NCBI GenBank assembly: GCA_964016885.1
Contig: OZ024741.1
Coordinates: 190,712,001 to 190,776,000, forward strand
Length of the DNA stretch: 64,000 bases
Direction: 5' to 3'
Source of the DNA: Eledone cirrhosa
Lineage: Eukaryota
A program made the translations under genes and the position numbers. Positions 41 to 62,990 of this stretch are shown one piece after another; the stretch's first letter is position 1, and each line of letters opens with the position of its first letter. The notes below the pieces were generated by a model, which was given only the letters and a program-made list of their open reading frames with translations, did no database searches and had not been told where the DNA came from.

Positions 41-114
<74 letters not shown>

Positions 115-204
115 GAAGGAGTTGTGGTAAGGAAACAGATGGATCATAACGCACCAAAGTACTCAATACTTGAGGTAGTAGAGTGGGTAATAGGAACCAG
201 TAAG

Positions 205-298
205 ACCCCGACGGCTGAGCTCAAGCCGTTTCGACGGCTAATTCTGGACTAAATGAAAATTTATCCTGGTATTTAAATAGCCGATCTTCTCAAGGGGT
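205..298 (-). ncRNA. Type I hammerhead ribozyme, U3-A8 variant (left-arm copy)
   Basis: Reverse complement of 2964-3057. Confidence 0.7.
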
Positions 299-1561
299 AA
301 TTCCATATATGGTCAATGTGATTGTCAAAAGTCAGTAGTAATTCTGTGATTGCAAATTAGTAGGAAAGATGGTGGCTAAACCTGCCAGTAGGAGAAAGAG
401 GGGAGGGGTGGAGTAGACCCAATCAAGCGTTGGTAGTGCCAGCTACAGCTGGGCATGAGGTCAAAGAAGATACTGGGGAGGGGGAGGGGGAGGAAGTCGG
501 AACGGTAGGTAGAACAATGAGGAGTAAAAATATATATGAAAGAAAAAATACTGAGGGTGAAGAAAAGCGAATAGGTGTAAAGGAAAAAGTAAAGCAAGTT
601 CTACGACCTAAGTCTCTAGCTATTGTTAGGCTAGATAAATAAATAAAGAAAGAAAGAAAGAAGTAAAGAAAGAAATAAAGAAATAACGAAATAAGTAAAT
701 GAACTAGGTGGGACGGAATAGGCAAGGACCCTTTTAAGAGGTATAAGTACGTAAATCATACGGTGACGGGTCAACAAATGGGGCCAAACTACTAAAGAGA
801 CTACCACGAAATAAATAATAAAGGTTTCTATCCCGGGCCCAATGCCAGCAACCACCCAGTGCAGCAAAGTAAACTAGTACGAGATAATAATTCTGAGTCC
901 CGAAAAAAATATATACTAATGCTAACTCTAAAAGATCTTAAACAAGCTACATGAAAGTTCGTACGAAGTAAAGGTAGGATACGGAAAAATAAATTCAGAA
1001 TCCACCCCGCCCAAAAGAAAAGCGAAGAAAGAAATACTGAAACGAGAAAATAAGGCGTAAGTGCCACTAAGAAATATAGAAGGCACGGAAAATAGTGGGA
1101 GCGGTCGGAAAAAGGGGGCAAGTATCCGGGGTCTAAACCAACTGCTATAAAAAGCGGAGTCCGCCAAATCTATCATAGACTAGGGGAGGGGTGGGGGTAC
1201 TAAGGCTACAAGGGGCCAAAGGGCAGCCTCGGGTGGGCGAGAAAAGACGCCGACAAAGAAGAAGAGCTGGGGTAGAAGGACTAAGTAGGGATGGGGGGAA
1301 GGAATAAAGGAAGCGATAAAAGAATAAAAAGAAGATCTTACGTCTCCCTTGGCAAGCAGGGGTTACCCATTGCAAAATCGGCAAGTGGGGTGTTATAGCC
1401 CTAGTCTACCCCCCCGGGTCATTATGGGGTTTGAGGGCGAGGTAAGTCCTACGCAAGCTATGTTTACATGCAGTAACCAGTTCATCTTTCTTGTTTAGGA
1501 GTTGGTCCGTCGAAAACAGCATTTGTAAAGTTTCCTCCGAGCATAAATTGCACGGACGGCG

Positions 1562-1893
1562 TCCTATATAGGACTTACCGCATGTGACTTCAAGACCCGG
1601 CTATACCAACATAGACATACCTTCCGAAACCCGGCCCGGCGTCACGCCACTACACTTTCGGGCCACATATGGGACCTCAAGGACAACAACATCACCTATG
1701 ATCTCACTTGGAGATTACTGTCTAGAGCCAATTCTTACACGGGAGGACGCCGTCCGTGCAATTTATGCTCGCAGGAAACTTTACAAATGCTGTTTTCGAC
1801 GGACCAACTCCTAAACAAGAAAGATGAACTGGTTACTGCATGTAAACATAGATTGCGTAGGACTTACCTCGCCCTCAAACCCCATAATGACCC
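1562..1893 (+). pseudogene. PLE GIY-YIG endonuclease C-terminal fragment (no start codon, absent from ORF track)
   Basis: Manual translation from 1562: SYIGLTACDFKTRLYQHRHTFRNPARRHATTLSGHIWDLKDNNITYDLTWRLLSRANSYTGGRRPCNLCSQETLQMLFSTDQLLNKKDELVTACKHRLR. Shows YIG, FKxR, IWxLK, CxLCxxE and LLNKxxEL..C.H motifs. Confidence 0.85.
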
Positions 1894-2963
1894 GGGGGGG
1901 GGGGTAGACTAGGGCCAAGGGAGACGTAAGATCTTCTTTTTATTCTTTTATCGCTTCCTTTATTTCCTTCCCCCCATCCCTACTTAGTCCTTCTACCCCA
2001 GCTCTTCTTCTTTGTCGGCGTCTTTTCTCGCCCACCCGAGGCTGCCCTTTGGCCCCTTGTAGCCTTAGTACCCCCACCCCTCCCCTAGTCTATGATAGAT
2101 TTGGCGGATTCCGCTTTTTATAGCAGTTGGTTTAGACCCCGGATACTTGCCCCCTTTTTCCGACCGCTCCCACTATTTTCCGTGCCTTCTATATTTCTTA
2201 GTGGCACTTACGCCTTATTTTCTCGTTTCAGTATTTCTTTCTTCGCTTTTCTTTTGGGCGGGGTGGATTCTGAATTTATTTTTCCGTATCCTACCTTTAC
2301 TTCGTACGAACTTTCATGTAGCTTGTTTAAGATCTTTTAGAGTTAGCATTAGTATATATTTTTTTCGGGACTCAGAATTATTATCTCGTACTAGTTTACT
2401 TTGCTGCACTGGGTGGTTGCTGGCATTGGGCCCGGGATAGAAACCTTTATTATTTATTTCGTGGTAGTCTCTTTAGTATTTTGGCCCCATTTGTTGACCC
2501 GTCACCGTATGATTTACGTACTTATACCTCTTAAAAGGGTCCTTGCCTATTCCGTCCCACCTAGTTCATTTACTTATTTCGTTATTTCTTTATTTCTTTC
2601 TTTACTTCTTTCTTTCTTTCTTTATTTATTTATCTAGCCTAACAATAGCTAGAGACTTAGGTCGTAGAACTTGCTTTACTTTTTCCTTTACACCTATTCG
2701 CTTTTCTTCACCCTCAGTATTTTTTCTTTCATATATATTTTTACCCCTCATTGTTCTACTTACCGTTCCGACTCCCCCCCCTCCTCAGTATCTTCTTTGA
2801 CCTCATGCCCAGCTGTAGCTGGCACTACCAACGCTTGATTGGGTCTACTCCACCCCCTCCCCTCTTTCTCCTACTGGCAGGTTTAGCCACCATCTTTCCT
2901 ACTAATTTGCAATCACAGAATTACTACTGACTTTTGACAATCACTTTGACCATATATGGAATT

Positions 2964-3057
2964 ACCCCTTGAGAAGATCGGCTATTTAAATACCAGGATA
3001 AATTTTCATTTAGTCCAGAATTAGCCGTCGAAACGGCTTGAGCTCAGCCGTCGGGGT
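2964..3057 (+). ncRNA. Type I hammerhead ribozyme, U3-A8 core variant
   Basis: ACCCC-TTGAGAA-GATCGGCTA...TAGCCGTC-GAAA-CGGCT(TGAGCTC)AGCCG-TC-GGGGT. Stems I, II and III all pair; GUC triplet. Confidence 0.75.
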
Positions 3058-3067
3058 CTTACTGGTT

Positions 3068-3103
<36 letters not shown>

Positions 3104-7070: not shown

Positions 7071-7400
7071 AGATTTTGAGTTTATGTTGGTTGTATACCA
7101 ACACCTCAGTATGCAGGCTGGAGCACTCGACGAAGTGCGCAGGTTGGTTTGGTTACTCCGGAGTAGTGTAAAATAAAGTTAAATAAAAGTCAAATGATTA
7201 AAATTTAGCTTCGTTTATTACTGCTATATATATTTCAGTGACAGCCACCTTTGGCTGTGACCTCTTCAGGCAGTTCGAATTAGATACTAATTCGAACTGC
7301 CTGAAGAGGTCACAGCCAAAGATGGCTGTCACTGAAATATATATAGCAGTAATAAACGAAGCTAAATTTTAATCATTTGACTTTTATTTAACTTTATTTT
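7071..7400. mobile_element. Short PLE pLTR fold-back (palindrome ~7170-7400, centre ~7285)
   Basis: Near-perfect inverted repeat with an HHR and AATAAA in each arm; (TA)n on both sides. Confidence 0.8.
7296..7350 (+). ncRNA. Type I hammerhead ribozyme (mirror copy 7220-7274 on -)
   Basis: ACTGC-CTGAAGA-GGTCACAGCC(AAAGAT)GGCTGTCACT-GAAA-TATATA-TA-GCAGT, followed by AATAAA. Confidence 0.8.
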
Positions 7401-10774: not shown

Positions 10775-11245
10775 CTAATTAGGTATTGAGATATTAGCTG
10801 TATACTTTATGGAAAGTTCTATGGGATTTATGCAAGCAGAGCGAAAATAATCCGTACGTCTATTTATTATAGAATTAAAATTAGAGATAATGGTAAATTT
10901 CTCGGCTAGGCAGAGATTACATGTTTTGGATAGGGAAGAATTCTGGTAAGGAAAGGCGTTGTAAACCTTCCTCCAAGATATGTTGTAGTTAATATTTTTG
11001 TCTTTTAAGGACCATATGAGTTCCGAGAGTGCCGTGTTAGTTCTTTTAAGTTGGTATTTAAAAGATGAATTGTGATTATAAAATCTTGCTTTAAAGGAAA
11101 TGGAAGTGGAACCAAAATAGGTAAAAGAATTAGTACCAGTTATAACCTTACATTCATACACTAAATTTTTATCAAGACATTGGTTATTAAGAGGACATTT
11201 AGTTCTAACAGGGAAAAACATGTGCGTCAAAACATGGCGTCCCAC
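10775..11245 (-). pseudogene. PLE GIY-YIG endonuclease domain (5'-truncated)
   Basis: KCPLNNQCLDKNLVYECKV...TYFGSTSISFKARFYNHNSSF...TALSELIWSLKD...CNLCLAEKFTII...INRR. Confidence 0.85.
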
Positions 11246-11967
11246 CCTCTTCCGATACTGCCAATATATAGTAATAATAATAAATGTGAAAACTAAAATC
11301 CAAAGAGGGCTTGATAAAGATAAATATATATCAAATATATAAGAACCCTAGATCAAATATTTATTAAAATAACAGATTAAAGTTTAAGCAAAGAATCGCT
11401 GCTTTCACCCTTAACAGGATCTTCTGAAACTTAAATCTCTAAGTTCATAATTCATTTAACTAATTCCTCTAAGTTCATAATTCATTTAATCTCTCCTTCA
11501 TTCACATTATATCCTTAATATTTTAATTTTAATAATACATATTAATAAATTCTTTTTTTCGCACATATTATTAAACCCTTCAATATATAAACCTTAAATA
11601 AATACTATTCTTAATTCCTTTTTATTTAATCATAAACCTCATTAACTTTTAATTTCAAAATCTTTTAAAATTATCTATTATCTATTATCTTACAACGGTT
11701 TTTTTAAATTTCTCTCTGTGAAACAGTGTTTTCTCAGTTTTAAAGGCTATCTCTCTCTCTCACTCATTTCTCCTCCTCTCTCATCCTTCCTTCTTATACT
11801 TTTCCCCTGTCATCCTTTATTTTCTTTCTTCCCCTTCCTTACCTTTTCCTGCCCCCACTCCTCTTTTTTTCCCCCAATCTCATATATCCATCTTACTTTA
11901 TTTTTCATATGTTGATTTAACACTTCACTGCTCGCAAGTGTTTTTTAAGCTTCATATCATGTCTCCC

Positions 11968-17496: not shown

Positions 17497-17736
17497 CATA
17501 TATATATGTGTCTATATGTATGTATATATATATATATATATGTGCATGTGTGTGTATGTATGTATTTCCACACATGTCCAAATATATGCGTATTTAAATG
17601 TATATGTGGTAATATATACGTACTTATGTGTATATGTGCTAATATATACGTATCTATTTATCGATTTATGTATTTGTTTATTATTTTTTTGAGTGAGTCC
17701 CTCATTCTTGCTCTTGTGTTGGCATGTAAACAGAAC

Positions 17737-17778
17737 TGCAGACACTAATGTTTCTGGGTATTAGCCATCATCAGTACA
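17737..17778 (-). ncRNA. Compact type I HHR of a solo retrozyme-like element
   Basis: Minus strand: TGTA-CTGATGA-TGG(CTAATAC)CCA-GAAA-CATTAGTG-TC-TGCA; octamer 84 nt upstream. Confidence 0.7.
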
Positions 17779-17858
17779 CGTCACTGTTCACCTGCCAACT
17801 GTCAGAGCTGGTGAATATGTATGCTATTTTCTAAAATATACAGTGACTGATCAGCCTG

Positions 17859-17866
17859 ATTTGCAT
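17859..17866 (-). promoter_or_regulatory. Octamer motif ATGCAAAT upstream of the HHR
   Basis: Exact octamer followed by CAGGCTGATCAGTC, which resembles TAGGCTGCTCAGCC after the octamer at 21347. Confidence 0.5.
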
Positions 17867-17976
17867 ATTAGCAGACTGGCTGATCAGTCAGTTTCCTGTA
17901 TACGAGTGATCAATGGCCGGCTTTGCCATATTCAAATAAAATTAAAAAAACATATATATATATATATATATATATA

Positions 17977-20724: not shown

Positions 20725-20786
<62 letters not shown>

Positions 20787-20893
20787 GTTTGTATTTGTAA
20801 AGCCAAAACAATGCAGGTATGGATATAGAATATAAATGCAAATGCAAAAGATATTGTTGACAATTAGTCTTTTACCTTAAATTTATTTAAATA

Positions 20894-20998
20894 TCCTTAA
20901 TTTTCGAGATAATATCTCTTCTTCGGAGGGAAGTAAAGTTGTTAAACCAGCGTTCTAAATAGCTTGGCAAGCTATTTAGAAAGCTGGTTTAACAACTT
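20894..20998 (-). repeat. pLTR fragment with HHR-like motif (20894-20930) ending in a 63-bp fold-back palindrome (20936-20998)
   Basis: Minus strand CCT-CCGAAGA-A-GAGAT(ATT)ATCTC-GAAA-AT-TA-AGG; palindrome AAGTTGTTAAACCAGC...GCTGGTTTAACAACTT. Confidence 0.55.
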
Positions 20999-21346
20999 AC
21001 ATCGTTCCTGTGTCAGTGTTGAACAAAAAGGTGACGTGGTTGCCTTAACACCGTATGGCATAAATTCAGGCTGTTCAGTTTGTTTACAAACGAACAAAGC
21101 GACGTTAGCGCCGCTAAACTGATACGTGCATATATGTATGTGTACCTGTATGCATATGTATATATATATGTATATATATATATATATGTGCATGCTACTG
21201 TACGTCTGTATACATATATGTATGTACGTATACATGCATACTTACATTTAAGTAAGTGCCATACTAAGAGTGAGAAATGAAATTTCGTTTTCATTTTGTT
21301 TCAATTTATCGTTTTCGGTATGCCTGACCGATTTAACTCACTCAAT

Positions 21347-21394
21347 ATGCAAATTAGGCTGCTCAGCCGTTAATTTTCATAAGGAAAGTATATA
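21347..21394 (+). promoter_or_regulatory. Putative internal snRNA-type promoter: octamer ATGCAAAT (21347-21354) plus conserved block TAATTTTCATAAGGAAAGTATATA (21371-21394)
   Basis: Both blocks and their spacing are conserved in the otherwise divergent 469-bp family. Confidence 0.5.
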
Positions 21395-21427
21395 CTTTCG
21401 AACGTTCAACTATCTGGCAGATGGGTA

Positions 21428-21472
21428 AACGGTGCTGATGATAGCTAACAAGCTTGAAACTAGTACATCGTT
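21428..21472 (+). ncRNA. Minimal type I hammerhead ribozyme; predicted cleavage after 21465
   Basis: AACGGTG-CTGATGA-TAGC(TAACAA)GCTT-GAAA-CTAG-TA-CATCGTT. Confidence 0.85.
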
Positions 21473-21826
21473 CCTGTGTCAGTGTTGAACAAAAAGGTGA
21501 CGTGGTTGCCTTAACACCGTATGGCATAAATTCAGGCTGTTCAGTTTGTTTACAAACGAACAAAGCGACGTTAGCGCCGCTAAACTGATACGTGCATATA
21601 TGTATGTGTACCTGTATGCATATGTATATATATATGTATATATATATATATATGTGCATGCTACTGTACGTCTGTATACATATATGTATGTACGTATACA
21701 TGCATACTTACATTTAAGTAAGTGCCATACTAAGAGTGAGAAATGAAATTTCGTTTTCATTTTGTTTCAATTTATATATATATGTATGTATGTTTATATA
21801 TATATATATATATATGTATGTATATT

Positions 21827-21913
<87 letters not shown>

Positions 21914-21934
21914 ATATGTATGTATATATATATT

Positions 21935-21965
<31 letters not shown>

Positions 21966-22533
21966 ATTTATATGTATGTATATATATATATATATATAAT
22001 TATATTTTCCAATTATATATATATATATATATATATAATAAACGAATGGAGCTGTGTGGTTACTGTAAACAAAGTTTAAAATGTAGTAGTATGGATGAAA
22101 CAAGAGAAGAAAAAAAAGGAAGAAAAGAGATCCTTCATCAGCTGTAAAATCACTATGAAGATGTTTCGGTGCTTAATACAGGACATCTATAAGCAATCAG
22201 TGGTGCACCCAAGGCCTTTTCTCAATCAAAAGGCCAGGAGGGAAATAAAAGAAAAAGGAAGGAAAAAAAAGAAAAAAAGAAGGAAAAAAAAGAAAAAAAG
22301 GGCGAAAGGTAATGAGGAGAGAGGAAGAAAGAGAAAAAACAAGTAAACAGACCAGATAGTGGGGGGGACACAGGACAATGGAACATGCAAGTGAGCAACC
22401 AAGGAAAAAATGGAATAGAATAAGTACTGAATAGACGTAAGTCGGGTGGGATGTGATAACAGGAACCGAGTGTTACTGTGTCAACTCAATCGAAGTGGAG
22501 AGAGACGGAGAAGGGAAAGGGAGATAATATATA

Positions 22534-27242: not shown

Positions 27243-28129
27243 CATCATCATCATCAAATTTTAACATTTAGTTTTGCAGACTGGCATGGTTTGGATGAGA
27301 TGCCATAGATCAAATCAGCACGTAACTGTAATTACTGACCTCTGAAATGAGCTTGGGGCTACATCTCACTTACAAAGAGCTTTCACACAGTTTCTGTTCA
27401 CCAAATTCCATTACAAGGTATTGGTCAACCTGAAACTACAGTAGAAGACACTTACCCAAAGTGTCAGGCAATGGGACTGAACCCCAAATCATGTGGTTGT
27501 AAAGCAAACTCCTTAACCACACAACCATGGTTGCACCTATTTCATGTTTATATCTTCTAAACACCAATTTAATAACAATTTAGCCTTCCAAATTTTTCAT
27601 TGTCTTAAAAATTGATAGAAAATTATAAGCTGCTTATTTCATTACAAATATGGTAATGAAAGGGTTAACAACTCACAAAAACTGTTATATTCAGTGAAAT
27701 TGTGTCTGTAGCCATCCTACAAAGAATGTTATAGACATTTTGATACTACAAAAGAAATGAATGGAAAGGAATTATAACATTTTTGTATGTTTTTAACCCT
27801 TTTATTATCATATTTCTAATGAAAAGACATTGAGTGTGATTTTCAAATCATTTTGAAAATAATCAAGAATTTGGAGGGATTTAGGAATACGACTAACTTT
27901 CCTCTAATCAATTTCATGTTTGGAATATAGTTTAACAAAGGTTCTTTTATAAAATTATGATGGGAGATTTTAAAATAAATATAAACATTTTACAATAAAC
28001 AGTTTTGTATTGTAGATTGATGGCTGGTGTCAGTCAGTTTGGTATCAAAAGGAGTAAATACTTAAACTGACTTTACCACAATGTAATTGCTAATTATTCT
28101 AAATTTTTCTTTATTATATGTATCTGCAG

Positions 28130-28371
28130 AGTATGAAGTTATCATAGTAACAGGAATGTACAATGAAGCAGGGACAAGTGCCAATGTCTTTCTGACAATA
28201 TTTGGCAAGAAGGGGACTCACAGGAAGATCCAACTTAAAAGACATGAAAACAGTTTCTTGGAGGCTTCCAGCTGTACTTTCCACCTGAAAGCCAGCAATA
28301 TTGATCCATTGGGGAAAATACGTATTGAACATGATAATAGCGGAGATTCTCCTGACTGGTTTTTGGAAAGA
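28130..28371 (+). CDS. LOXHD1: Next exon of the PLAT/LH2-repeat protein: N-terminal part of the following PLAT domain
   Basis: CTGCAG acceptor, phase compatible with the previous exon (G+AG = Glu), AGA|GTAAGA donor; EYEVIIVTGMYNEAGTSANVFLTIFGKKG...LGKIRIEHDNSGDSPDWFLER. Confidence 0.85.
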
Positions 28372-29094
28372 GTAAGATATATCTATTACAGTCCTCCTTC
28401 TATATCTTTAGGAGCATACACCCCCCCCCCCCCAAAAAAAAAACCCTAACAAAAAAACAAAACGAAACAAAAACACCAACACTGTCACTGACACCACCAT
28501 CAACAGCACTGCTAAAATCACTTCTGATGCTACCAAGGACAACATCACAAGCAACACCACCATTAACATCCCCAACACTACCACCAAAACCACAAACAAC
28601 ATGCCCACCAACATTACCATATCACCAGCATCACCACCACCACCACCAAAACTATCAACAACACTAACATGAACACTATCCCCAACATCACTATCAATAT
28701 CCCCCCCAATGTATGTCTTATTTATCGGGTTTAATATTTCCTGCTATGAAACACACTAGAGTATAAAATACTTTTCTATCATATAAAATATGATAAAACT
28801 AATCATAAACTCTAGCGTTATCATTAAGAGTTTCAGTAGAACAGAAGTAAAGTTAGAGTTAAGGTAAAAGTTTCAAGGATAGTAATATAGTGTTACAACT
28901 AATAAACCTGATTAGCAGAATCAGTGGCAGTTCAGTTTTCACTTACTCTTAGGTCTTCAATAATCCTCCACCCCTGCTTATAAAATTTCCAGATTTTTCA
29001 CCCCCCACCCCACCCTTGCTTATTAAATTTTGCTAATCTATCTCTGGCGAAATTTTATTTTAAGTGATTCATATTGATACAACAGCTGGAGAAT

Positions 29095-30712: not shown

Positions 30713-30889
30713 ATAGGAACGAGTAGGACCCCGACGGCTGAGCTCAAGCCGTTTCGACGGCTAATTCTGGACAGCTTGAGCTCAGCCGTCGGGGTCCTAC
30801 TCGTTCCTATTACCCACTCTACTACCCTAAGTATTGAGTACTTTGGTGCGTTATGGTCCATCTGGTTCCTTACCACATTTCCTTCGTTA
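30713..30889. mobile_element. Mini fold-back of the same PLE pLTR family as 112-3072
   Basis: Inverted repeat 30713-30750 / 30774-30810 containing only the 3' part of the HHR; tail is the reverse complement of 112-190. Confidence 0.8.
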
Positions 30890-42950: not shown

Positions 42951-45503
42951 TCTTGGAGTCTGAGTCATTGATGTTATTTAACTGGAAAGTTTGTTGAAAT
43001 GTACATCAAGCCGCTACCTGCAGCCTCAGATATTCAGGATGTATCGGAGGGTTCTTGCTATTCCCAGCAAGCATGCCTTTTGAAGTGTTCCAATAAAGGG
43101 GCTGGACTAATCTTCTTTAACCATCCTTGAAAACTCTTTGAGATAGTACCTAATGCTCCTTTGACAATCGAGACAACCTTGATCTCATGACAGTCCCAAA
43201 TCCTTTTTAACTCCCACTTTAAATCCTACATCTACAATCAGGCACAATCTTTTATCCTTATCAAAAACCACCAAGTCAGATGTATTGTGTTCTAATTTCT
43301 TGTCTGTCTGTATCCTGAAATCCCATAGCTACCTCACTTAATCGCTTTCTATCACCGACTCTGGCTTATACTCATACCACGCCTCAGAATGTGATAAATT
43401 ATTTAGTTTGCATAAATGCCAGTGAATCACCTTTCCTATTATATCGTGCCTCCAGCCTTTATAGTGAGTTTGGGCTTGGGTTTTACACTCAGATACAATG
43501 TGAGCCACAGTCTCCTCTCTCTCTCCACAGATCCTACACAGTGAGCTAGCCTCCTCCTTGTGAATATGGTGTTTCACCTACTTCGTTCTGAGAGCTTCCT
43601 CTTGAGAAGCCATTAGCATTCCTTCTGTAGCTTTTTTAAGGTCTCCTCTTTTTAACCAGTTCCATGTCTGTGGATCTCTAAATTCCGTTTTCTTAAAGAA
43701 GGTACTATGAAGGGATTTTTCATGAAGGTTGCTCTTCCCCCTTGTTGTTATTTCCTCCTTGGACATCCTTGGTCCATTGTCTTCTCCTTCAGTACAATTT
43801 TGAGCATTGGCTCCCTACTGTCAGTCACATATTTGTGCAGGTTGTTTTTCTCCATCTGAACACAGTCCTCTATGCTGATAAGACCTCTTCCACCTTCAGA
43901 TCTTTTTAAGTAAATTCTATCAACATCACTCCTCTTGTGGAACATGTTGTAGATAGTCATTAGCTTCCTAATCTTCCTATCCATTTCTTTTTGTTCAGCA
44001 ACATTTCATTTCAGAATTCCCGCACTGTACCTAATAATGGACACAGCTCAGGAATTTACTGCACTTATGACATTCCTACTATTTAGACGTGATTTTAATA
44101 CGCTCCTTACTCTCCTAATGTACTCAGATCTTATCAATTCCTTCATTTTTTTGTTCTTGATGTCATCTGCCTCCAGAACACCTAAATATTTGTATCCTTC
44201 TTCAGTGTCAATTTCTTTTATCATCTCACCTGTTGGTACCTGGATTCCGTTGCTTCTGCTCAATTTACCCCTCTTCATCACTTCATCACAAGGACTCCAC
44301 ACTTATTAAAAACCAAACTCCATACATATATCATTGCTGAAAATACGGACAGTGTCAACTCCTTCTCACTCTTCTCAAAGAGTTCAAGATTGTCTATGAA
44401 GAGGAGGTGGTTGATGGTAAGCTCTCCCTTTCCCAACTTGTATCCTGCTCTCACTTTTCGCAATATGACAGACAGGGGTATCAGGGCAAGGACAAACAGC
44501 AGAAGGGACAAACTATCTCCCTGGAAGATACCTCTCTTGATCTTCATGCCTCCCAAGGATTCTCCACCTGATGTTAATTCTGTTTCCCAGGACTTGATAC
44601 TTTTGCTCAACAACTGTCTGATGTTATCTGCCACCTTGAAGATCTCTAGGCTTTTGGTTATCCAAGAATGAGGTACCATGTCAAATGCCTTTTTGTAATC
44701 TATCCATCCCATGGCAAGACCAGTGTGCCTCCTCTTGCAATTCCTCATTACCATTTTATCAATAAGTAACTGGTCTTTTGTATCACGGGACTTCTTTCGG
44801 CATCCTTTCTGTTCGTCCGGTAACAAGTTGTTTGTGTGGAGGTGATGGTAGATTTCCTCAGACACAATGCTTGTTAAGAGCTTCCACATTACGGACAGAC
44901 ATGTGATAGGTCTATAGTTGGTAACATCATTACCCTTGATTCGGTCTTTCATTACCAGAACTGTGGTACCTTTTGTCAACCACTCTGGTACCTCACCTGA
45001 CATCAAGCAGTCATTGAACATGGCCGTCAGCTTCGGGTGGAGGGATGTTCAATTTTTAATCCAATACCCCTGCACACCATCTGGGACTGGTGATTTCCAG
45101 TTGGTTAGTTTTTTGGCCTGCCATTTAAGAGTTTCAACTGTGATACTCAAATCAGTTTGTTGGTGTGCTTGTTCACTAATCTCCTTTTGAACTGTCTCAA
45201 TCCACACTGCCTGACTATTATGTTCAACATTCTGCTCCCATATTCCTCTCCAGAATGGCTTAGTCGGTTCCGCTTCAGGGATCACATCGTTGCCTCTTTT
45301 TTTCCCTTCAAGCTGTTCAAACAACATCTTCTGGTTGTTGTCAAACATGCGGTTCTGTCTGTACTGACTAACTCTGTTCTCATACCGCCTAATCTTTGCA
45401 CTTTTTGCTATAATGCGTTGCTTCAGTTCCTCTATGATAATATTTAGCTTTTTCCCCCTAGTTTTGTATTTTATTTTCAATCTATCTTTAGTGTCTATGT
45501 TTT
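42951..45503 (-). mobile_element. R4/Dong-like LINE (degenerate RT, CCHC, RLE)
   Basis: NYRPITCL, EQKGC, WIDYKKAFDMVPH, GIFQGDSLS, HLLFIDN, YKYLG, CRICGEREETVAHIVSEC across broken ORFs. Confidence 0.9.
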
Positions 45504-45504
45504 T

Positions 45505-47096
45505 ATTCTGAGTTCAAATCCTACCGAGGTTAACTTTGCCTTTCATCCTTACGGGGTCGATAAAATAAAGTACCAGTAATACACTGGGTAATTGCTGGCT
45601 TTGTGCCAAAAAGTAGAAACAATTATTATTATTATTATTATACTTTGGATCTCAGTCATTGATGTTATTTAACTGGAAAGTTTGTTGAAATGAATATCAA
45701 GCCACTACCTGCAGCCTCAGATATTCAGGACGTATCGGAGGGTTCTTGCTGTTCCCAGCAAGCATGCTTTTGAAGTGTTTCAAAAAGCGGGGCTGGACTA
45801 ATCTTCTTTAACCATCCTTAGAAACTCTTTGAGATAGTACCTAGTGCACCTATGACATTCGTGATGACTCTGAATTCATGGCAGTTCCAAATCCTTTTTA
45901 CCTCCCAATTCAAGTCCTGGTATTGGTTAATTTTCTTCCTCTCCTTCTCTTGCACTCTCGTGTCAAATGGGCAGGCTACATCTACAATCAAGCACAATCT
46001 TTTTTCCTTGTTCAAAACCACCAGGTCAGGCCTATTGTGTTCTAATTTCCTTTCCATTCGTATCCTAAAATCCCATAGCACCCTCACCTTGTTTCTATTA
46101 CCAACTCTGGCTTATGCTCATACTACTTCTCAGAATGTGGTAAATTGTTTACTTTGCATAAATGCCAGTGGATCACCCTGCCCATCACATCATGTCTCCA
46201 GCCTTTATAGTGAGTCTGGGCTAGGTGTTTACACTCGGATACAATGTGGGCCACAGTCTCCTCTCTCTCTCCACAGATCCTACATAGTGGGCTAGCCTCC
46301 TCCTTGTGAATATGGTTTTTCACCCACTTCGTTCTGAGGGCCTGCTCTTGCGCAGCCATTAGCATTCCTTCTGTAGCCTTTTTAAGGTCTCCTCTTTTTA
46401 ACCAGTTCCATGCCTGTGGATCTCTAAATTCCGTTTTCTTAAAGAAGGTACTATGAAGGGATATTTCATGAAGGTTGTTCTTCCTTCTTGTTGTTATTTC
46501 CTCCTTGGACATCCCTTGGTCAATTGTCTTCTCCTTCAGTACAATTTTGAGCATTGGCTCCCTACTGTCAGTCACGTATTTGTGCAGGTTGTTTTCTCCA
46601 TCTGAACACAGTCCTCTATGCTGATAAGACCTCTTCCAACTTCAGATCTCTTTAAGTAGAGTCTATCGACATCACTCCTCTTGTGGAACATGTTGTAGAT
46701 AGTCAATAGCTTCCTAGTCTTCCTATCCATTTCTTTTTGTTCAGCAACATTCCATTTCAGAATTCCCGCACTGTACCTAATAATAGACACAGCTCAGGAA
46801 TTTACTGCACTTATGATATTCCTACTATTTAGATGTGATTTTAATATGCTCCTTACTCTCCTAATGTACTCAGATCTTATCAATTCCTTCATTTTTTTGT
46901 TCTTGATGTCATCTGCCTCCAGAACACCTAAATATTTGTATCCTTCTTCAGTGTCAATTTCCTTTATCATCTCACCTGTTGGTACCTGGATTCCTCTTTG
47001 CTACAATGTGTTGCTTCAGTTCCTCTATGATAATATTTAGCTTTTTCCTCCTAGTTTTATACTTTATTTCCAATCTATTTTTAGTGTCTATGTTTT
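45505..47096 (-). mobile_element. SINE family 1 (45505-45640, +) plus a second R4/Dong-like copy lacking the RT core
   Basis: RPDLVVLNK...IVDVACPFD...KINQYQDL endonuclease motif; same 5' end as the first copy. Confidence 0.85.
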
Positions 47097-49690: not shown

Positions 49691-51299
49691 CAGTACAAAT
49701 TTAGGAAAATTAGGAAAAATGCGGTTTTAGGTATTTTTAATAAAGTTAGGGTAATGAAAATTTAACTACTCATAGAACCTATAATGAGGCATTTAATGAT
49801 ACAATCATATTTAAAAAAAAATAACAAGGAAATAACTCATGAAGAAAAATCAATATTTTTAAAACGCAAAAGTTTACAAAACATTTTATATTTATCGCTT
49901 TTTTTCAAGAAAATTCTTAAATTTTCAGATTTAAAATTCTGTAGAATGTTCTAGATTAGGTTTAAGGTAACTTCTAAGGACTATTAAAAACATTACGTCA
50001 TTATTTGTCTGACAACCATCCTGTAAACATTGACAACCGTCCTGTAAACATTGACAATATGGGGAAAAATAAACTGATTGATCAAGATCTCTGTAAACGC
50101 ATTGTAGACCTTCATACAAATTGTGTTGGTTATAGAAAGATATCTTGGCAGTTAAATGTGCCATTGAGTTCAGTTGGTACTATAATTTGTCACTGGAAAT
50201 CTCATCATTTCATCTGTCCTCTAATTAGTTCTGGTCGTCCTAGAAAGATAACGAAATGTGCAGCTCGGTTATTGACGAGAAAGGTTGGCAACGAACCCCG
50301 GTGTACTCTTAAAAATCTTCAGGATGACCTAGAAGGAAGTGGAGTAAAAGTGAGCACAGATACAATTAGTCGTTCACTTCATCGATATAATATCTTCTCG
50401 AGGTCTCTAAGGAAAACACCACTTCTTACGAGGAAACACATTCTTCGTCGATTAAACTTTGTAAATGAGCATCTCATCAAACCTGCGTCATTTTGGGAAG
50501 ATGTACTTTGGTCGGACGAAACAAAAATTAAACTTTTTGGTCGAAATGCTGTGGCAAAAGTCTGGAGAAAGAAAGGTACTGAATATTCACCGAAGAATAC
50601 TATTCCAACTGTAAAATTTGGAGGTGGATCAATCATGGTCTGGGGTTGCTTTAGTGCCACAGGTGTAGGAAATATTGAAATAATAGAAGGAAGAATGGGT
50701 GGCGTTTATTATAGAGGTATTTTGCAAAGGAATTTACATCAAAGTGCACATTCTCTCAGCTTAAAGCCAGGCTGGTTTTTTCAACAAGATAACGATCCAA
50801 AGCATACTGCAAAGCTAACACAATCTTGATTAAGTATGAATGGAATAAATGTTCTAAAATGGCCAAGTCAGTTTCCAGATCTTAACCTGATCGAAAATTT
50901 GTGGAGAGAACTGAAACTCAGAATTCAAAAAAAGGAAATCCCAAAATATCCCTGAACTAAAGAAAATTTGTTGTGAAGAATGGATAAATATTAGCCAAGA
51001 AACATGCAAGAAGTTTGTAGGAGGCTACTCTGTACACCTACAGGCTGTAATTAGCAGCAAAGGTTACGCTACGAAATATTAAGAGATGATTTAATAAATG
51101 TGTTGTAAACTTTTGCGTTATAAAAATATTGATTTTTCTTCATGAGTTATTTCCTTGTTATTTAAAAAAATATATGATTGTATCATTAGATGCCTCATTA
51201 TATGTTCTATCAGTAGTTAAATTTTCATTACCCTAACTTTATTAAAAATACCTAAAACCGCATTTTTTTTAATGTGTTGTAAACTTTTGTGGGGCACTG
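49691..51299 (+). mobile_element. Tc1-family DNA transposon with long IR/DR-type terminal repeats and TA target duplication
   Basis: TA|CAGT...ACTG|TA ends; ~165-bp inverted repeat (~49716-49881 vs ~51103-51267); direct repeat AATGTGTTGTAAACTTTTG twice in the right TIR; left tip degenerate. Confidence 0.9.
50059..51082 (+). pseudogene. Tc1 transposase with premature TGA (50827-50829) and a frameshift near 50935
   Basis: [54 protein letters not shown]. Confidence 0.9.
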
Positions 51300-51501: not shown

Positions 51502-51792
51502 TCAAAACAAATAACGAAACGAAATTAAATTTCGTTTCGCTTCTAACTCACTTTTGTATGACTGACGCTTAAACAATTAAGTTAAAGTGTACATCTACAT
51601 ATGTATACGGAAGTATTAGTATGCATATAAATACACACATGTATACATATGTACATGTACTCAGCTTTTCACTAGACACTTTACAGTGAGTGTCAGCTAG
51701 TCTGTATGTAACCACACAGGCGGACCGGGTTTTAGAGTCATACGAGTTTTCAAGGAAACACATTTCCTCTATTCTCCAGAGGGCCAGACAGG

Positions 51793-51837
51793 AATATTGG
51801 ACTAGTTTCGATGTTATTACATCTCATCAGCAATATT
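51793..51837 (-). ncRNA. Minimal type I hammerhead ribozyme, copy 1
   Basis: Minus strand: AATATTG-CTGATGA-GATG(TAATAA)CATC-GAAA-CTAG-TC-CAATATT; canonical core, 7-bp stem I, GUC triplet. Confidence 0.9.
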
Positions 51838-51883
51838 TACCCATCTTCCGGCTTCTCTGGAGAATTGTAAAAGCACATATCGT

Positions 51884-51943
51884 TATATGCTTTTTCTATG
51901 AAAATTAGTAGTGGGTAGACTAACTTGCATAGAACGTGAGTCA
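51884..51943 (-). promoter_or_regulatory. Putative promoter module: TGACTCA, ATGCAAGT (51923-51930), TAATTTTCATAGAAAAAGCATATA (51884-51907); repeated at +469
   Basis: Homologous in order and spacing to 21335-21394. Confidence 0.5.
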
Positions 51944-52261
51944 TTGTACGCACCGGTTCAGCGGAAACGATAAAAACAAATAACGAAACGAAATTAAATT
52001 TCGTTTCGCTTCTAACTCACTTTTGTATGACTGACGCTTAAACAATTAAGTTAAAGTGTACATCTACATATGTATACGGAAGTATTAGTATGCATATAAA
52101 TACACACATGTATACATATGTACATGTACTCAGCTTTTCACTAGACACTTTACAGTGAGTGTCAGCTAGTCTGTATGTAACCACACAGGCGGACCGGGTT
52201 TTAGAGTCATACGAGTTTTCAAGGAAACACATTTCCTCTATTCTCCAGAGGGCCAGACAGG

Positions 52262-52306
52262 AATATTGGACTAGTTTCGATGTTATTACATCTCATCAGC
52301 AATATT
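52262..52306 (-). ncRNA. Minimal type I hammerhead ribozyme, copy 2
   Basis: Identical to 51793-51837. Confidence 0.9.
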
Positions 52307-52659
52307 TACCCATCTTCCGGCTTCTCTGGAGAATTGTAAAAGCACATATCGTTATATGCTTTTTCTATGAAAATTAGTAGTGGGTAGACTAACTTGCATA
52401 GAACGTGAGTCATTGTACGCACCGGTTCAGCGGAAACGATAAAAACAAATAACGAAACGAAATTAAATTTCGTTTCGCTTCTAACTCACTTTTGTATGAC
52501 TGACGCTTAAACAATTAAGTTAAAGTGTACATCTACATATGTATACGGAAGTATTAGTATGCATATAAATACACACATGTATACATATGTACATGTACTC
52601 AGCTTTTCACTAGACACTTTACAGTGAGTGTCAGCTAGTCTGTATGTAACCATATATAT

Positions 52660-54258: not shown

Positions 54259-54513
54259 TATAAGGAAAAGAAATTGAAAATGCAACTGGAGCCTTTTAAG
54301 AATATTTATTTATTTACTTTACCGGTTTCACAGTTTTTATGTTTTTCAAAGGTAAAATTGAGATGGAGGGTTTGTGTTTCTACACAACCAACAGAAACAC
54401 AAACCCTCCATCTCAATTTTACCTTTGAAAAACATAAGAACTGTGAAACCAGTAAAGTAAATAAATAAATATTCTTAAACGACTCCAGCTGCATTTTCAA
54501 TTTCTTTTGCTTA
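54259..54513. repeat. ~255-bp near-perfect palindrome (pLTR fold-back with the HHR 3' half only)
   Basis: Arms of ~120 bp around ~54385 (mirror ORFs in the track); GAAA-CC(G/A)G-TA followed by AATAAA. Confidence 0.85.
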
Positions 54514-56800: not shown

Positions 56801-57106
56801 TATTGGGGGTTTTTACTGGAACATTCCACCAGTACTCTTTCATATGTATGTATACATGCTTGCTTTCTATAACCTCCTCATTTTTCATCTCTCTTTTTCC
56901 CTCTCTCTCCCACTCTCTATTCGATTTGTGGTTATATCTTAAACCCCCAACTTTTTTCTATACAAATAGTATGCAGCTGTTTAAGGCTACCTTCCGCGCT
57001 GAGAATACTCAAATTTTACGAATATTCATTTACATTCATCGCTTCAAACCTTTCCAATTAATGTTTTATATATATATTTCGGGATTGTTTTTTTTATAAT
57101 TATTAT

Positions 57107-58915
57107 AAGGTGCTAGCAAAGGGGTTGGCACTTGTCGTCGGTGGTCTGGTGGGAGAGGCGCAGACATGCGCCATTCCAGACACATCCATCCATGACAACC
57201 TCCACCTCATGCGATACGTCGTAGAGAGGGTAGCTGGCATGGGTGGGTCTTTGATCAATTTAGATCAGTCGAAAGCTTTCAATAGGGTCGACCATCATTA
57301 TCTGGCAGCAGTCCTGAGGGCGACTGGCTTTGGGCCTGTCTTCAGAGGTTGGATTGCTGCCATGCACAGCAACATCTGCTCTGTGATGGGAGTGAATGGT
57401 CATCCTTTGAAACCGTTCAACATCATGCGCTCAGTCCGCCAAGGATGTCCCCTCTCGTCCCTCTTGTACGTATTGACTCTCAAGCCATTACTGCACAAAC
57501 TTGAGACATTGAGGGGGGTCCCATGCGAACTGGGATGTGGAAGAACCGTGTCAGCATATGCCAACGACGTCGCCGTAGTGGTGTCGAATGCCAAACACAT
57601 TGAGGCAATCAGCAGTACACTAAGAGAATAGGAGGCGGTGACAGGAGCAATGATCAACCAGGAAAAGTCGGTGGGCCTGTAACTCGGCACCTGGAGAGGC
57701 AGGTCCATGCTGCCCAACAGCGTCGTCAGGCGCTGGACGGACGGACTGGTTAAATTGCTAGGGGTCTGGTTTGGTCCAGGACCTCCAGATGGACAAAAAC
57801 TGGGACGAGGTGATGAGCAGGATGGCCTCTCTCACCCATAAATGGGCTGAGAGGAAGCTATCCCTGAAAAGTTGAGTGGAGGTGGCGAATGGGTACATCG
57901 CGTCCGTCATATACTACTGCCTGACCATCATGCCTTATACTAAGCCTCGCCTGATTACAGTGCAGTGTTTGCTCTTTCGCTTTTTGTGGAAGGAACGTGC
58001 ACCGATGGTCAGGCGGTCCATCTGCTGTCAACACCCTCTACGTGGAGGGCTGAGCATGCTGTGGCTGATGATGCGCAGATATGCGCTCAGGCTATGGCAT
58101 CTCCACCTCTTCCTCGACGGTGATCAGGTGTGGTCGACGTTTGCTAGACGCATCTTTCCCCAGCTCATCTTCTTGATGGAGCTGCAGTCCTGGGTCAAGC
58201 GAAGACCGAGAGGGAGCACTTGGAGACTGGAATGTCTTCCGGATCTTATAGCCCTCGACCAGCTGAGCAATGCGATCGGTGGAAACTCCATCTTGGCATT
58301 CTATAGAGGGTTTGTGGAGGGAAAGAGCGACGACGTCCTTGGGGAGACTCTTGGCATCGAGGAAAATCAACTAGCCAATCTCTTCAGGAGAACTTTTGGG
58401 CCAGGGCCCATGGACAACTTACAGAAATCCCTGGCCTGGCAATGCTACCAAGGAGCCTTGACAGTTTAGGATAAATTCTACAGGCATGGAAGCGCCGTTA
58501 GCTGGGCCTGTCCGAGATGCATGCAGGGAGATGAAACCGGCCTGCATGCACTCGTCCAGTGTCCGAGCATTGCTGACTTGCGGGTTTATGTCAAACACCT
58601 GCTGTCGTGTGTAGGACGGATCCGGCTATCAGCTGAGTCCACCGTGAGGATTGCCCCGCCGCTTCCTTTAGCCGAGAAGAGCAGGCAATTTTTATTTGCC
58701 TGATGATCATGGTAAAAGAGATTGTATGGTGGACACGTCTGAAAGGGTTGAAGACAGGTACTTTCCTCTTCGGCAATTTCCTCATTAACTTTTTCAGGTT
58801 TCACCTGAAAAGGAAAATCAGGGTGGAGAGGGAAGTGTTGCCTTCCAGCCAGTTTGTTGAAAGGTGGGTGAGAGAGGCAAGAATGGCCCGTGTGAATGAG
58901 CCTACCCTGAGCTTT
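57107..58915 (+). mobile_element. Tx1/L1-clade LINE RT to C-terminus (degenerate)
   Basis: QTCAIP..SIHDN, LDQSKAFNRVDH, SVRQGCPLS, AYAND, LLFRFLWK, C..C...ET..HALVQC. Confidence 0.85.
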
Positions 58916-58929
58916 GGGATAAGTAATCA

Positions 58930-59900
58930 TTAGACTCCTTAGGTATCATTCCTAGAGCGCCTACAACCACTGGTATTGTTTTAGTTCTCAACTTCTACAA
59001 TTTTCCAATTTCTATCTCCAGGTCCTTATACTTGCTCAATTTTTCAAATGTTTTTATAGATACATTCTTGTCTATTGGAGCGGACATATCAATTAGCAGG
59101 CATACCCCCTTTTTAAAGTCCTTCAGTATTATATCAGGTCTATTTGCATCTATTTTTCGGTCTGTTTGGATGCTAAAGTTCCACAAGATTGAGATGTGAT
59201 CTTTTTCAAGTACGGGAGGTGGTTGATGCTCCCACCAATTCTTTTGATGGGGCAGGTCAAAATGCTTACACATTATCCAATGTATGTATTGTGCAGCTCT
59301 GTCGTGCCTGTTTAGGTATTCGGTTGGAGCTACAGGACTGCACATTGAAATTATATGATCAATGATCTCTGGTTGTTTTTTACATACACGGCATAATGGG
59401 TTGCAACCATTTTTTATTATGTTGGCTTGATAATTTTTTGTTGGCAGACACTGATCTTGTGCTGATATAATCAGTCCTTCAGTCTCCAATTTCAGTCCAG
59501 AGGTTGCCAACCACTGATGGATTAAAGTTTTGTCAACATCAGGATTGTTAGCTTTTTCTGGGTATTTTCCATACAGAGGCTTTTCTTGCCATTTCTTAGC
59601 CAGTTTCTGTAGCAGTTCTTTCTTTGCAGTTACTTTTACTTACTTTGCTTTTTCTGTGTATTTGTAGTTTACTATATCTTTTTTGTAATGGAGTATGATC
59701 TTTTGATGCTTTCATGTTTCAAAACGAGTTTGATCATCCAATCATGTGCCTGCCTTAGATATGTAGATAATCCAATTGTTACAGTTTTTAAAGCAATATC
59801 TAACTGGATTAATCCACGTCCTCCTTCTTTCCTAGGGAGATATATTCTATTTGTATCTGCCTTAGGGTGATGCATTCCGTGCATGGTTAAGAATTTTTCT
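58930..59900 (-). mobile_element. R4/Dong-like LINE fragment (different family)
   Basis: RIYLPRKEGGRGL, ETEGLIISAQDQ, CRVCKKQPEIIDHIISMC, NRPDII...IDM...EKLSKYKDL. Confidence 0.85.
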
Positions 59901-59945: not shown

Positions 59946-60831
59946 CAGGGTGCGGACGATATTTGTTCGCAAGATTACTGTCTAGGAAAAAATAACACAG
60001 TAGTTTCATTTTTTAAGATTTATTTATCAAACCTGGGTTAGTTTGTCTTCATGACGTGTTCTTTCGATCTCACTTGATAAACCTGCCATTGGCTTTGATG
60101 ACGGCCTCAAGGCGGCCTCAGAACCGGCTACAGGCCTTCGTCACTGTCCCTGACTTAGGCCCCTAAAGGCACTTGTGATCCTGGCCTTCAGATCATCTTT
60201 TGTATTGCAGCTAGATCTGTTGGTGTCTCGTTCCACTGTGCCCCACACAAAGAAGTTGAGGGGGTTGCAGTCAGGCGAGCTGGGAGGCCAGATGTCAGGT
60301 GAAGTGTGGTCGACGAAGTTCTCTGACAGCCAGGCTTGGGTCTTTTGGCTGGTATGGCAGGGTGATGAGTCTTGCTGCCACACGTACGGCCTACCTGCAG
60401 CTACCTGGTCTATCCAGGGCTTTACTACCTCGCTCAGAATGCGGATGCAGCCATCGGTGTTCAGCTTGAGGCCCTCAGGGAAGGAGTGAGGTGGCATGAC
60501 GTCACCTTGACTGCTGACGACACCTAAGACCAATGTTGTCGCTGGAAACTTTGTCTGCATGACTCTGGGCACGTCTTTGGCTGAGACAGCGAGCCACCTG
60601 TTGTTCTGGGAGTTGATCTTCTGGTCTTATTTGTCCTCCCGGTTCAGATTCCAAGAAGAACTCCGTGTCTCTTCCACAAATTTGGAGGTTCAAAATTATT
60701 CGTAATCAATTATTCTGAAAATAAATAATGGAAATATAGTCAGTTTTTATGAAGACAAGAGTGACAACGGAAGTAAAAAAAATTTGCATAAAATTAGCAG
60801 TTGAAAATTGCGAACAGATATTGTCCACACC

Positions 60832-61861: not shown

Positions 61862-62990
61862 ATTTCTGAATTTGTTTTGCAAGATTTCTTATCTGAAAAT
61901 GTGCGTTGAAACAGATATTGTTATACTTTGGGAGGGTCATGCTGCCAATAAAAACACACTTCAATTTATTATAAATTTCCAGTTGGTTGGTTGGTTCGAT
62001 AACTGGAAGGATGTTTATATATTGTCAAAGCTCTTTTGTCACACATTCTGTGACCTCCTCAGTGACTAGGTTTTATTTTGTGTCTCTCTCCTTTGTTCTG
62101 TCCTACACCATCTTGTTTTTATGTGTTGTGTGCTTAGTTTGCGCATGTGTTAAATCCGTGTATGTATGTGTTTTTATTTATTTATTTATGTGTTTACTTA
62201 CTTGTCACTAGTTGGTTGTTTGTTCTATCTGTGTGTGTCTGGTTTGTTTTGTTAGCTTGGTTTTTGTGTATGTCTTCATTTTGTCTTTAATTACTAGTTG
62301 TGATGTTGCTATTCCACTTATGTTTTCTGTTTAATTTTGGTTGGAGTTTGTTTATATTTGTTGCCTCAGTGATTTGTCTGAGCATTGCATCTTTTCTGGG
62401 TGTGGATATAATGTTTATCTCTATGTTTTCTAATATGCCGCTATGTTCTATTTTGGCATGTTGGTGGAGTACTGATGAGTTTTTCTCAACCTGGAGTTCT
62501 CGCCAGTGTTCACTTATCCTTTCTCCTATGCTACAGGCTGTTTTACCTATGTATGTTGTGTTCTTATTCCTACACTGTCCCTCAGTACATCTTATGTTAT
62601 ATATTACATTCCTAGTTTTGTAGTTAGTTTGTGGGCTCAGCTTGCAGACTATGTATTTCCTATCAGCACAGGGGGATCTTTGAAATGGGTATGTTTTGCT
62701 AATTAGAGTTTTTATGGGAATACCGGGTCTTTCAACTATCTTAATATTTAATTTGAGCTTCTCTAGGGCCCTTCTAAATCTATAAGCTAGTTCGCCACTA
62801 GGGGTTGTATTGACGAACATTACACTCTGGTATTTATTGCTATCATATCATGAGTTTATTTGCCTTATTCCTAATCCTTTCTATTTTATTCCAAAATTTG
62901 CTCCTATACATAGGGTAAGTAATAAATTGAAGTAAAAACCAACTGGTGCATGTGTTTTTATTGGCAGCATAACCCTCCCAAAGTATAACA
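61862..62990 (-). mobile_element. PLE of a second subtype: GIY-YIG ORF end, pLTR, and short inverted pLTR tail at ~62920-62990
   Basis: 62920-62990 is a reverse-complement match to ~61918-61975; HHR at 62024-62066. Confidence 0.8.
62287..62820 (-). pseudogene. PLE linker plus GIY-YIG endonuclease (5'-truncated)
   Basis: FVNTTP...IKIVERPG...NVIYNIRC...C...YIGKT..SIGERISEH...HQH...H...RQITEA..I....PKLNRK. Confidence 0.85.

Follow-up and report, generated by a model that had tools for sequence, protein, structure and literature searches.

In the R2 and RTE retroelements a self-cleaving ribozyme determines the 5′ end. Elements of this type are treated in a passage of the review PMC7761336, which together with PMC7229834 describes the non-LTR retrozymes of coral, mussel and axolotl. 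These are short non-coding tandem units of about 170-400 nt with one type I hammerhead and a weak palindromic helix III; they occur in thousands of copies, as two families per genome, and their cleavage and circles have been demonstrated. Penelope-like elements (PLEs) are named in the available text of both sources only as likely partners or as a 'strong candidate', and a preprint (bioRxiv 10.64898/2026.07.22.740005) proposes that vertebrate retrozymes, with units of 51-972 bp, are non-autonomous PLE derivatives. PMC6962438, in the part available, only counts hammerhead matches.

For EN+ PLEs, the protein of the anole element starts reverse transcription (RT) at two internal RNA sites downstream of the hammerhead, defining a genomic 'tail', cuts or prefers AT-rich DNA and extends both strands; in vitro, ribozyme cleavage is not required and no reads ending at the cut site are reported in the accessible text (PMC11167929). 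PLE copies are often inverted and 5′-truncated, with a 30-40-bp tail that is frequently present at one end only, and Naiad and Hydra elements target (TA)n (PMC8557442). The enzyme that moves animal retrozymes has so far been argued by candidacy, co-occurrence and homology. Here we describe a retrozyme locus of Eledone cirrhosa, and the family to which it belongs, with a PLE-specific two-site insertion footprint.

The 466-nt unit and its hammerhead

The window, a 64,000-nt stretch of contig OZ024741.1, carries a complete retrozyme unit of 466 nt at 21000-21465 (+), followed by a partial second copy at 21466-21775 (+) with no mismatch to the first in 310 nt. The coordinates and the 100% identity given in a preliminary description of this DNA, made from the sequence alone, were exact. 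Numbered from the predicted cut, with u1 at 21000 or 21466, the partial copy spans u1-310 and then meets (TA)n, and the array comprises only 1.67 units and one intact ribozyme. The left (TA)n tract (20726-20783) and the right one (21776-22037) are both likely targets, and a target-site duplication is undefinable within them. The unit has a local GC content of 0.28 and a TA-rich microsatellite/hairpin within it, and is non-coding, the sole overlapping frame of at least 120 aa being the microsatellite frame. As a circular monomer it is predicted to fold at −152 kcal/mol with 67% of the sequence paired, largely in the TA-rich hairpin, a figure that stands without a shuffle control.

Counts of exact sequence patterns across the 3.0-Gb genome gave 14,124 matches of a 27-mer from u6-32, which, extrapolating from the first 100 matches, corresponds to about 8,800 loci. 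A 26-mer of a sister 469-bp family gave 816 matches, and a core pattern shared by both gave 23,447. Of 55 multi-site arms, 15 include a unit that matches the window copy exactly over u250-466 and u1-125, and this copy falls in the youngest subfamily. Having the sequence features of non-LTR retrozymes (a short, low-GC, non-coding tandem unit, a type I hammerhead and many dispersed copies), the 466 repeat is a real, young and very abundant retrozyme family of a kind already known. It resembles the coral, mussel and axolotl retrozymes in its weak palindromic helix III, its thousands of copies and the presence of two families in the genome, and differs from them in its longer unit (466-469 nt) with a TA-rich hairpin.

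The sister family is represented in the window by a single-armed array at 51504-52652 (−) of 2.4 units with two hammerheads, which stops 3 nt before its family's long end (see below) and is flanked on either side by an 11-nt duplication. The 466 and 469 units align at 300 of 495 columns. Elsewhere, 469-type arrays of about 30 and at least 40 units (C1:5738326-5752444 and C1:127664704-127685482) keep a head-to-head inversion.

The type I hammerhead of the 466 unit lies at 21423-21475 (+). Stem I is formed by 21429-21434/21466-21471 plus an outer 3 bp, the core by CTGATGA (21435-21441) and GAAA (21456-21459), stem II by 21442-21446/21451-21455 with a U.U at its base, as in axolotl HHR_Amex2 (PMC7229834, PMC7761336), and helix III by a palindromic CTAG. 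The GUA of this model ends at 21465, in agreement with the cut after GTA that had been predicted earlier. The differences between the stems of the two families reported in the same description are real, although in register stem II is U.U plus 4 bp here against 5 bp in the 469 family, rather than AGC/GCT. A third lineage has CGCG in place of CTAG with the palindrome kept; this palindrome is needed for dimeric folding, according to the accessible part of PMC4209133. The CGCG lineage was seen at L012:2851-2925 and L081:4075-4149. A CTCG variant of helix III is scattered among 469-type units in L120-L134, and further hammerhead families occur in L033, L040, L069 and L092.

Comparison of 18 natural variants, chosen from motifs in the fetched loci, supported the earlier proposals of a fixed core and of selection on the fold. 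No core nucleotide varies, and at position 17 A, C or T is found. Pairing holds in 95.8% of cells, with both sides changed at 11 of 16 pairs; this pairing level was reached by none of 500 shuffles, and slid controls gave 35-53%. Because the variants represent some three related lineages, the covariation counts overstate the number of independent events. Judged from these alignments, the hammerhead fold is supported as being under selection. Folding the motif as a single strand gave no significant stability (z −1.05 and −1.55), and the active core was absent from its MFE structure. Rfam matched only 469-family copies (to HH9, at E 4.6e-4 and under the gathering score), and the 466-family hammerhead was absent from the Rfam listing at E≤1.

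Of the cleavage and circles demonstrated for the coral, mussel and axolotl retrozymes, cleavage is predicted here from the motif and circles are proposed. Since only 1 of 9 dimers tested in the vertebrate preprint cleaved, according to its available text, self-cleavage of the 466 unit is not to be assumed. Two consecutive units with a complete hammerhead, termed 'active' in the 2026 preprint, are present at many other loci of the family and not at the window locus; this criterion applies to single copies, not to a family.

5′ ends and the predicted cleavage site

The preliminary description read the insert as the cDNA of a ribozyme-processed RNA, suggestive of cleavage in vivo. On this reading the template would be a linear, ribozyme-cut RNA, with the reverse transcriptase running off at the 5′-OH and, at this locus, then jumping to a PLE RNA, such that the 5′ end of the window copy would record the cleavage. 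The model behind this reading is that of R2 and RTE. Selection on the fold is in its favor, as is the position of the window 5′ end within 2 nt of the predicted site. The statement that the first copy starts at the cut holds to that precision; homology actually stops at the TA at 20998-20999 (+), equivalent to u465-466 and 2 nt 5′ of the scissile bond. This TA lies within an imperfect AACT..TAC microhomology common to the retrozyme and to the upstream element, PLE family X, and is also explicable by it. A20999 agrees with the retrozyme base on the 5′ side of the scissile bond but mismatches X in strict register, contrary to a template that ends at the cut.

A peak of 5′ breakpoints at the site had been put forward as the observation that would support cleavage, and the family as a whole has no such peak. 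All of the first 30 matches of the 27-mer had at least the last ribozyme bases upstream, and 29 had the whole motif. Patterns for 5′ ends at the site gave 38 matches, and 4 of 30 fetched proved to be indels, so that about 34 of some 14,000 passes have a real end there. Passes ending within 3 nt of the cleavage site amount to about 0.6%, approximately the background rate. The flanking 3-nt bins gave 29 matches (about 10 of them indels by eye) and 14, controls that miss some (TA)n flanks, the 14-match bin being blind to such flanks altogether. The (TA)n-joined 5′ ends, counted by eye among 100 of 103 matches, numbered 9 at the site as against 11 two nt downstream (u2-3) and 5 three nt upstream (u462-463), with 4 more at about u460 and 2 at u5. 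Ends without a TA join were slightly more frequent at the site (about 23, compared with about 19 and about 14 in the flanking bins; p ~0.14), in the direction expected for cut RNA.

Wider windows gave a similar picture. A 30-nt window over the site yielded 313 matches per at least 14,124 anchors and a 28-nt control window 845 per 16,923, meaning fewer 5′ ends per anchor over the site, with about one quarter indels by eye in each. After a rough sensitivity correction, ends per nt were about 0.2% at the site as against 0.18-0.34% in the wider windows. Among resolved ends at the site, 14 of 24 were first-pass ends, where cleaved monomers would give nearly all and 76 of 100 are expected without any stop. 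A separate histogram placed 2 of 73 ends at the site, in a search blind to (TA)n flanks in phase with the site and therefore not used alone. Together, the 5′ end counts and the first-pass share indicate that about 99% of passes read through the ribozyme junction, as the window copy itself does at one intact junction.

In contrast to R2 and RTE, the 5′ ends of the 466 family are not set by its ribozyme, and their junctions, having no peak at the cleavage site, place it outside the class of ribozyme-defined 5′ ends. Copying from cut linear RNA is largely refuted for the family as a whole and has in our judgement a slim chance of being correct, although the counts leave room for a small excess of ends at the site, up to about 1.5-fold. 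The start of the window copy at the predicted cut is likely due to chance, and a single 5′ end at a ribozyme site is no evidence of cleavage in vivo. That the insert is a cDNA, as also proposed, is likely.

Fixed 3′ ends and a probable copying mechanism

The 3′ ends of the 466 family cluster at u245-251 (the short end, about u248) and at about u310 (the long end), each followed by (TA)n. We examined 56 arrays drawn from the first 92 matches of the 27-mer and not selected for their 5′ ends; 52 had at least one short or long 3′ end at (TA)n, and 37 had head-to-head arms (38 pairs). When these were combined with 113 break-selected loci, 61 of the 62 head-to-head pairs with both ends classed joined one short to one long end (p 1e-17), with a single long + long exception (L227) and no short + short pair; 48 further pairs had an unclassed end, and most of the sample lies on the first contigs. 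In the 469 family the ends fall at u225-231 and u299, positions that align with the two sites of the 466 family. In the window, the partial copy reads through the short site (21710-21716, +), a putative second RT start, and stops at the long 3′ end of the family. The intervening 'tail' of about 60 nt (21717-21775, +) has a predicted hairpin near 21740-21762, with a counterpart of different sequence in the 469 family.

Neighbouring families have the same two-end pattern, with tails of 41 nt in the coding PLE X, about 80 in Z, 86 in W and 102 in V. The retrozyme tails (about 60 nt in the 466 and about 70 nt in the 469 family) exceed the 30-40 nt given in the available descriptions of published PLEs. 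Two fixed 3′ ends with a tail at one end, an inverted 5′-truncated copy and a (TA)n target form the PLE signature, and all are present in the 466 family. The accessible accounts of EN+ PLEs (Poseidon PAc, PMC11167929; Naiad and Hydra, PMC8557442; pLTR hammerheads, PMC4209133) describe the same two internal RT starts downstream of a hammerhead, the one-ended tail, the inverted truncated copy and (TA)n or AT-rich targets. The retrozymes differ from these elements in having no ORF, a canonical rather than a minimal hammerhead, and multi-round tandem arms.

Since its copies, like those of PLEs, terminate next to (TA)n at one or the other of two fixed positions, PLE enzymes likely move the 466 repeat, and the insertion footprint is, at the level of genomic sequence, direct support for mobilisation of a retrozyme by PLE enzymes. 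An RT + GIY-YIG ORF is absent from the repeat, among the elements examined we found no autonomous one using the repeat as its pLTR, and the 3′ region of X has no homology to either the 466 or the 469 unit. Whereas the preprint, in the text available, draws on co-occurrence and pLTR homology in Xenopus, the evidence here comes from the footprint of insertion, the elements examined having yielded no homologous pLTR. The available text of PMC7229834 and PMC7761336 contains no map of insertion ends comparable to the two 3′ sites, inverted arms and (TA)n flanks described here, and a literature search, thin on subscription papers and supplements, returned no paper mapping retrozyme insertion ends. 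The present family is young, has thousands of loci and follows a near-strict rule of one site per strand. This pairing rule constrains how PLEs handle the two target strands, and the exact RT start sites can be tested in the existing in vitro PLE assay.

We consider it likely that this high-copy tandem hammerhead repeat, with its two fixed ends beside (TA)n, is copied by the RT and endonuclease of a PLE, probably from circular RNA. The ribozyme would cut transcripts to monomers, which would then be ligated. A PLE protein would nick both strands of (TA)n and prime cDNA at internal positions of the RNA, u310 for one strand and about u248 for the other, two-strand priming from two sites being suggested by the short + long pairing rule. 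Each cDNA would run a random length round the template, and the two arms would be joined by microhomology.

Spread as an ordinary satellite, through DNA-level recombination and microsatellite instability with the ribozyme as a relic, would fit the long arrays and the TA-rich microsatellite inside the unit. The fixed 3′ ends, the rule of one short and one long end, the dispersed short arrays and the core that is invariant across lineages all oppose it. The end pattern refutes recombination as the origin of the dispersed copies, an explanation to which we give almost no credence, while recombination may have lengthened some arrays.

Less certain is the form of the template. Read-through of the junction is compatible with a circle but also with uncleaved linear multimers or with later unequal crossover, and a circular template is put forward as probable. 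The same enzyme might instead copy uncleaved read-through transcripts of existing arrays, the ribozyme then acting in RNA turnover or another step rather than in transposition. Unprocessed RNA is indeed the dominant substrate of the anole PLE in vitro (PMC11167929, in its available part). Existing arrays as templates fit poorly with the composition of the units, which are identical in young arrays and, in older ones, carry scattered unit-private changes on a single subfamily background. Among the arms listed, units of one arm share a common subfamily and array-specific variants, which in L202 are carried by both arms, and no switch of subfamily at the cleavage site, as in mosaic arrays, was seen. 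Shared 5′ transductions were not noticed by eye among the flanks listed, 469-family arrays reach about 30 and at least 40 units, and related retrozymes accumulate as circles, as the text of PMC7229834 available to us reports. On balance, copying of uncleaved transcripts seems rather unlikely to us, and the circle remains the preferred template.

The upstream PLE arm and chimeric loci

The sequence upstream of the array (20784-20998) is not unique flank. It belongs to a PLE, family X, whose 3′ end lies here in inverted orientation with a 31-nt fold-back. The X portion (20784-20967, −) adjoins the left (TA)n tract with its short, tail-less end, has 99.5% identity to other copies and gave 114 matches at ≤1 mismatch. 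Other copies encode an RT with GIY-YIG at the C terminus (Pfam RVT_1, E 1.8e-11; GIY-YIG, E 1.2e-5). Family X has two ends 41 nt apart, of which the window carries the short one. A putative minimal-hammerhead-like motif at 20894-20931 (−), judged by eye against the accessible part of PMC4209133, has the core CCGAAGA at the window and CTGAAGA in two other copies, and helix III is absent. The fold-back at 20968-20998 (+) is the inversion junction, and the same centre is found at locus L115. A reading of the palindrome at 20936-20998 as the TIR of a DNA transposon with a TA duplication was rejected, as it is the PLE fold-back. The order at the locus is the short X arm, the 31-nt fold-back and the retrozyme up to its long end; with the upstream DNA being the inverted 3′ end of a young PLE, the locus is a chimera of PLE and retrozyme, flanked by a (TA)n tract on each side. 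The PLE arm-repeat joint was not seen in contigs of four runs of unrecorded kind, which is no proof of absence.

Foreign-arm chimeras numbered 10 among about 210 loci, with partners from families X, Z, V, W and U. Coding capacity was recognised by Pfam for X only; a frame of Z resembles a fragment of a PLE-type endonuclease, and of V, W and U just the ends are known. Outside this count, having no assignable family end or an intervening element, are the foreign 5′ flanks of L015, L029, L056, L061, L074, L219, L237, L239, L255, L263, L269, L290, L291, L293 and L295. L166, a candidate fusion of a retrozyme to a PLE ORF, was rejected because of a microsatellite in between.

The join at the window could also have arisen from two elements that were inserted separately into the same (TA)n tract and later fused by deletion, in which case it would not reveal the partner enzyme. 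Different families often lie tail-to-tail in one tract (L030, L036, L062, L099, L177), the join falls within microhomology, and three of the 10 chimeras (L231, L261, L279) violate the short + long rule. Both parts are, however, very young, the X arm at 99.5% and the units at 100% identity, and short + long pairing is found in 6 of 7 strictly resolved chimeras (the window, L025, L043, L051, L054 and L203; p 0.06) and, if looser calls are admitted, in 7 of 10 (p 0.17). For this join alone, we put fusion by deletion at somewhat short of an even chance.

Under copying by a PLE enzyme, the right arm at the window would have stopped, likely by chance, where the TA(C) microhomology overlaps the cut site, and would have been joined there to the PLE arm. 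Tentatively, a PLE protein dimer might prime the two nicked (TA)n strands, each from its own fixed site on a circular retrozyme RNA, and be able to bind its own mRNA at one of these sites while the other takes the retrozyme, a possibility that we rate as doubtful. If it is true, the window chimera, a PLE short arm with a retrozyme long arm, would be a snapshot of trans-mobilisation in one event, and several unrelated PLE families could each move the same circle.

Further elements lie elsewhere in the window. The PLE-like element Z (113-3070) has 1.36-kb inverted arms, with its long end on the left, its short end on the right and a tail of about 80 nt. Its endonuclease-like frame is at 1547-1912, and Z has also left a fold-back remnant at 30714-30809. 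A family V fold-back (7224-7400) includes a hairpin at 7247-7323, a hammerhead-like core, short and long ends and a tail of about 100 nt. An endonuclease fragment occurs at 10775-11347 (−); its relative in L074 has a CxCx5C linker, as described for Hydra-clade PLEs, and there the endonuclease coding region continues in sense into a retrozyme arm with no (TA)n between. A degenerate hammerhead-like core near 17774, within 17735-17880 (−) and with a short match to u345-367 upstream, is probably an old relative. A GIY-YIG fragment was found at 62287-62847.

The remainder of the window contains several LINE-like RT fragments at 44278-46641 and 57062-59639, and frames at 49978-50829 (+) and 60141-60626 (−) that we take, from their motifs, to be Tc1/mariner-like transposases. 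A frame at 28087-28449 (+) resembles a PLAT/LH2 domain exon, possibly of a host gene with these elements in its introns. Finally, a near-perfect hairpin at 54346-54428, within a longer inverted repeat, is likely another fold-back insertion.
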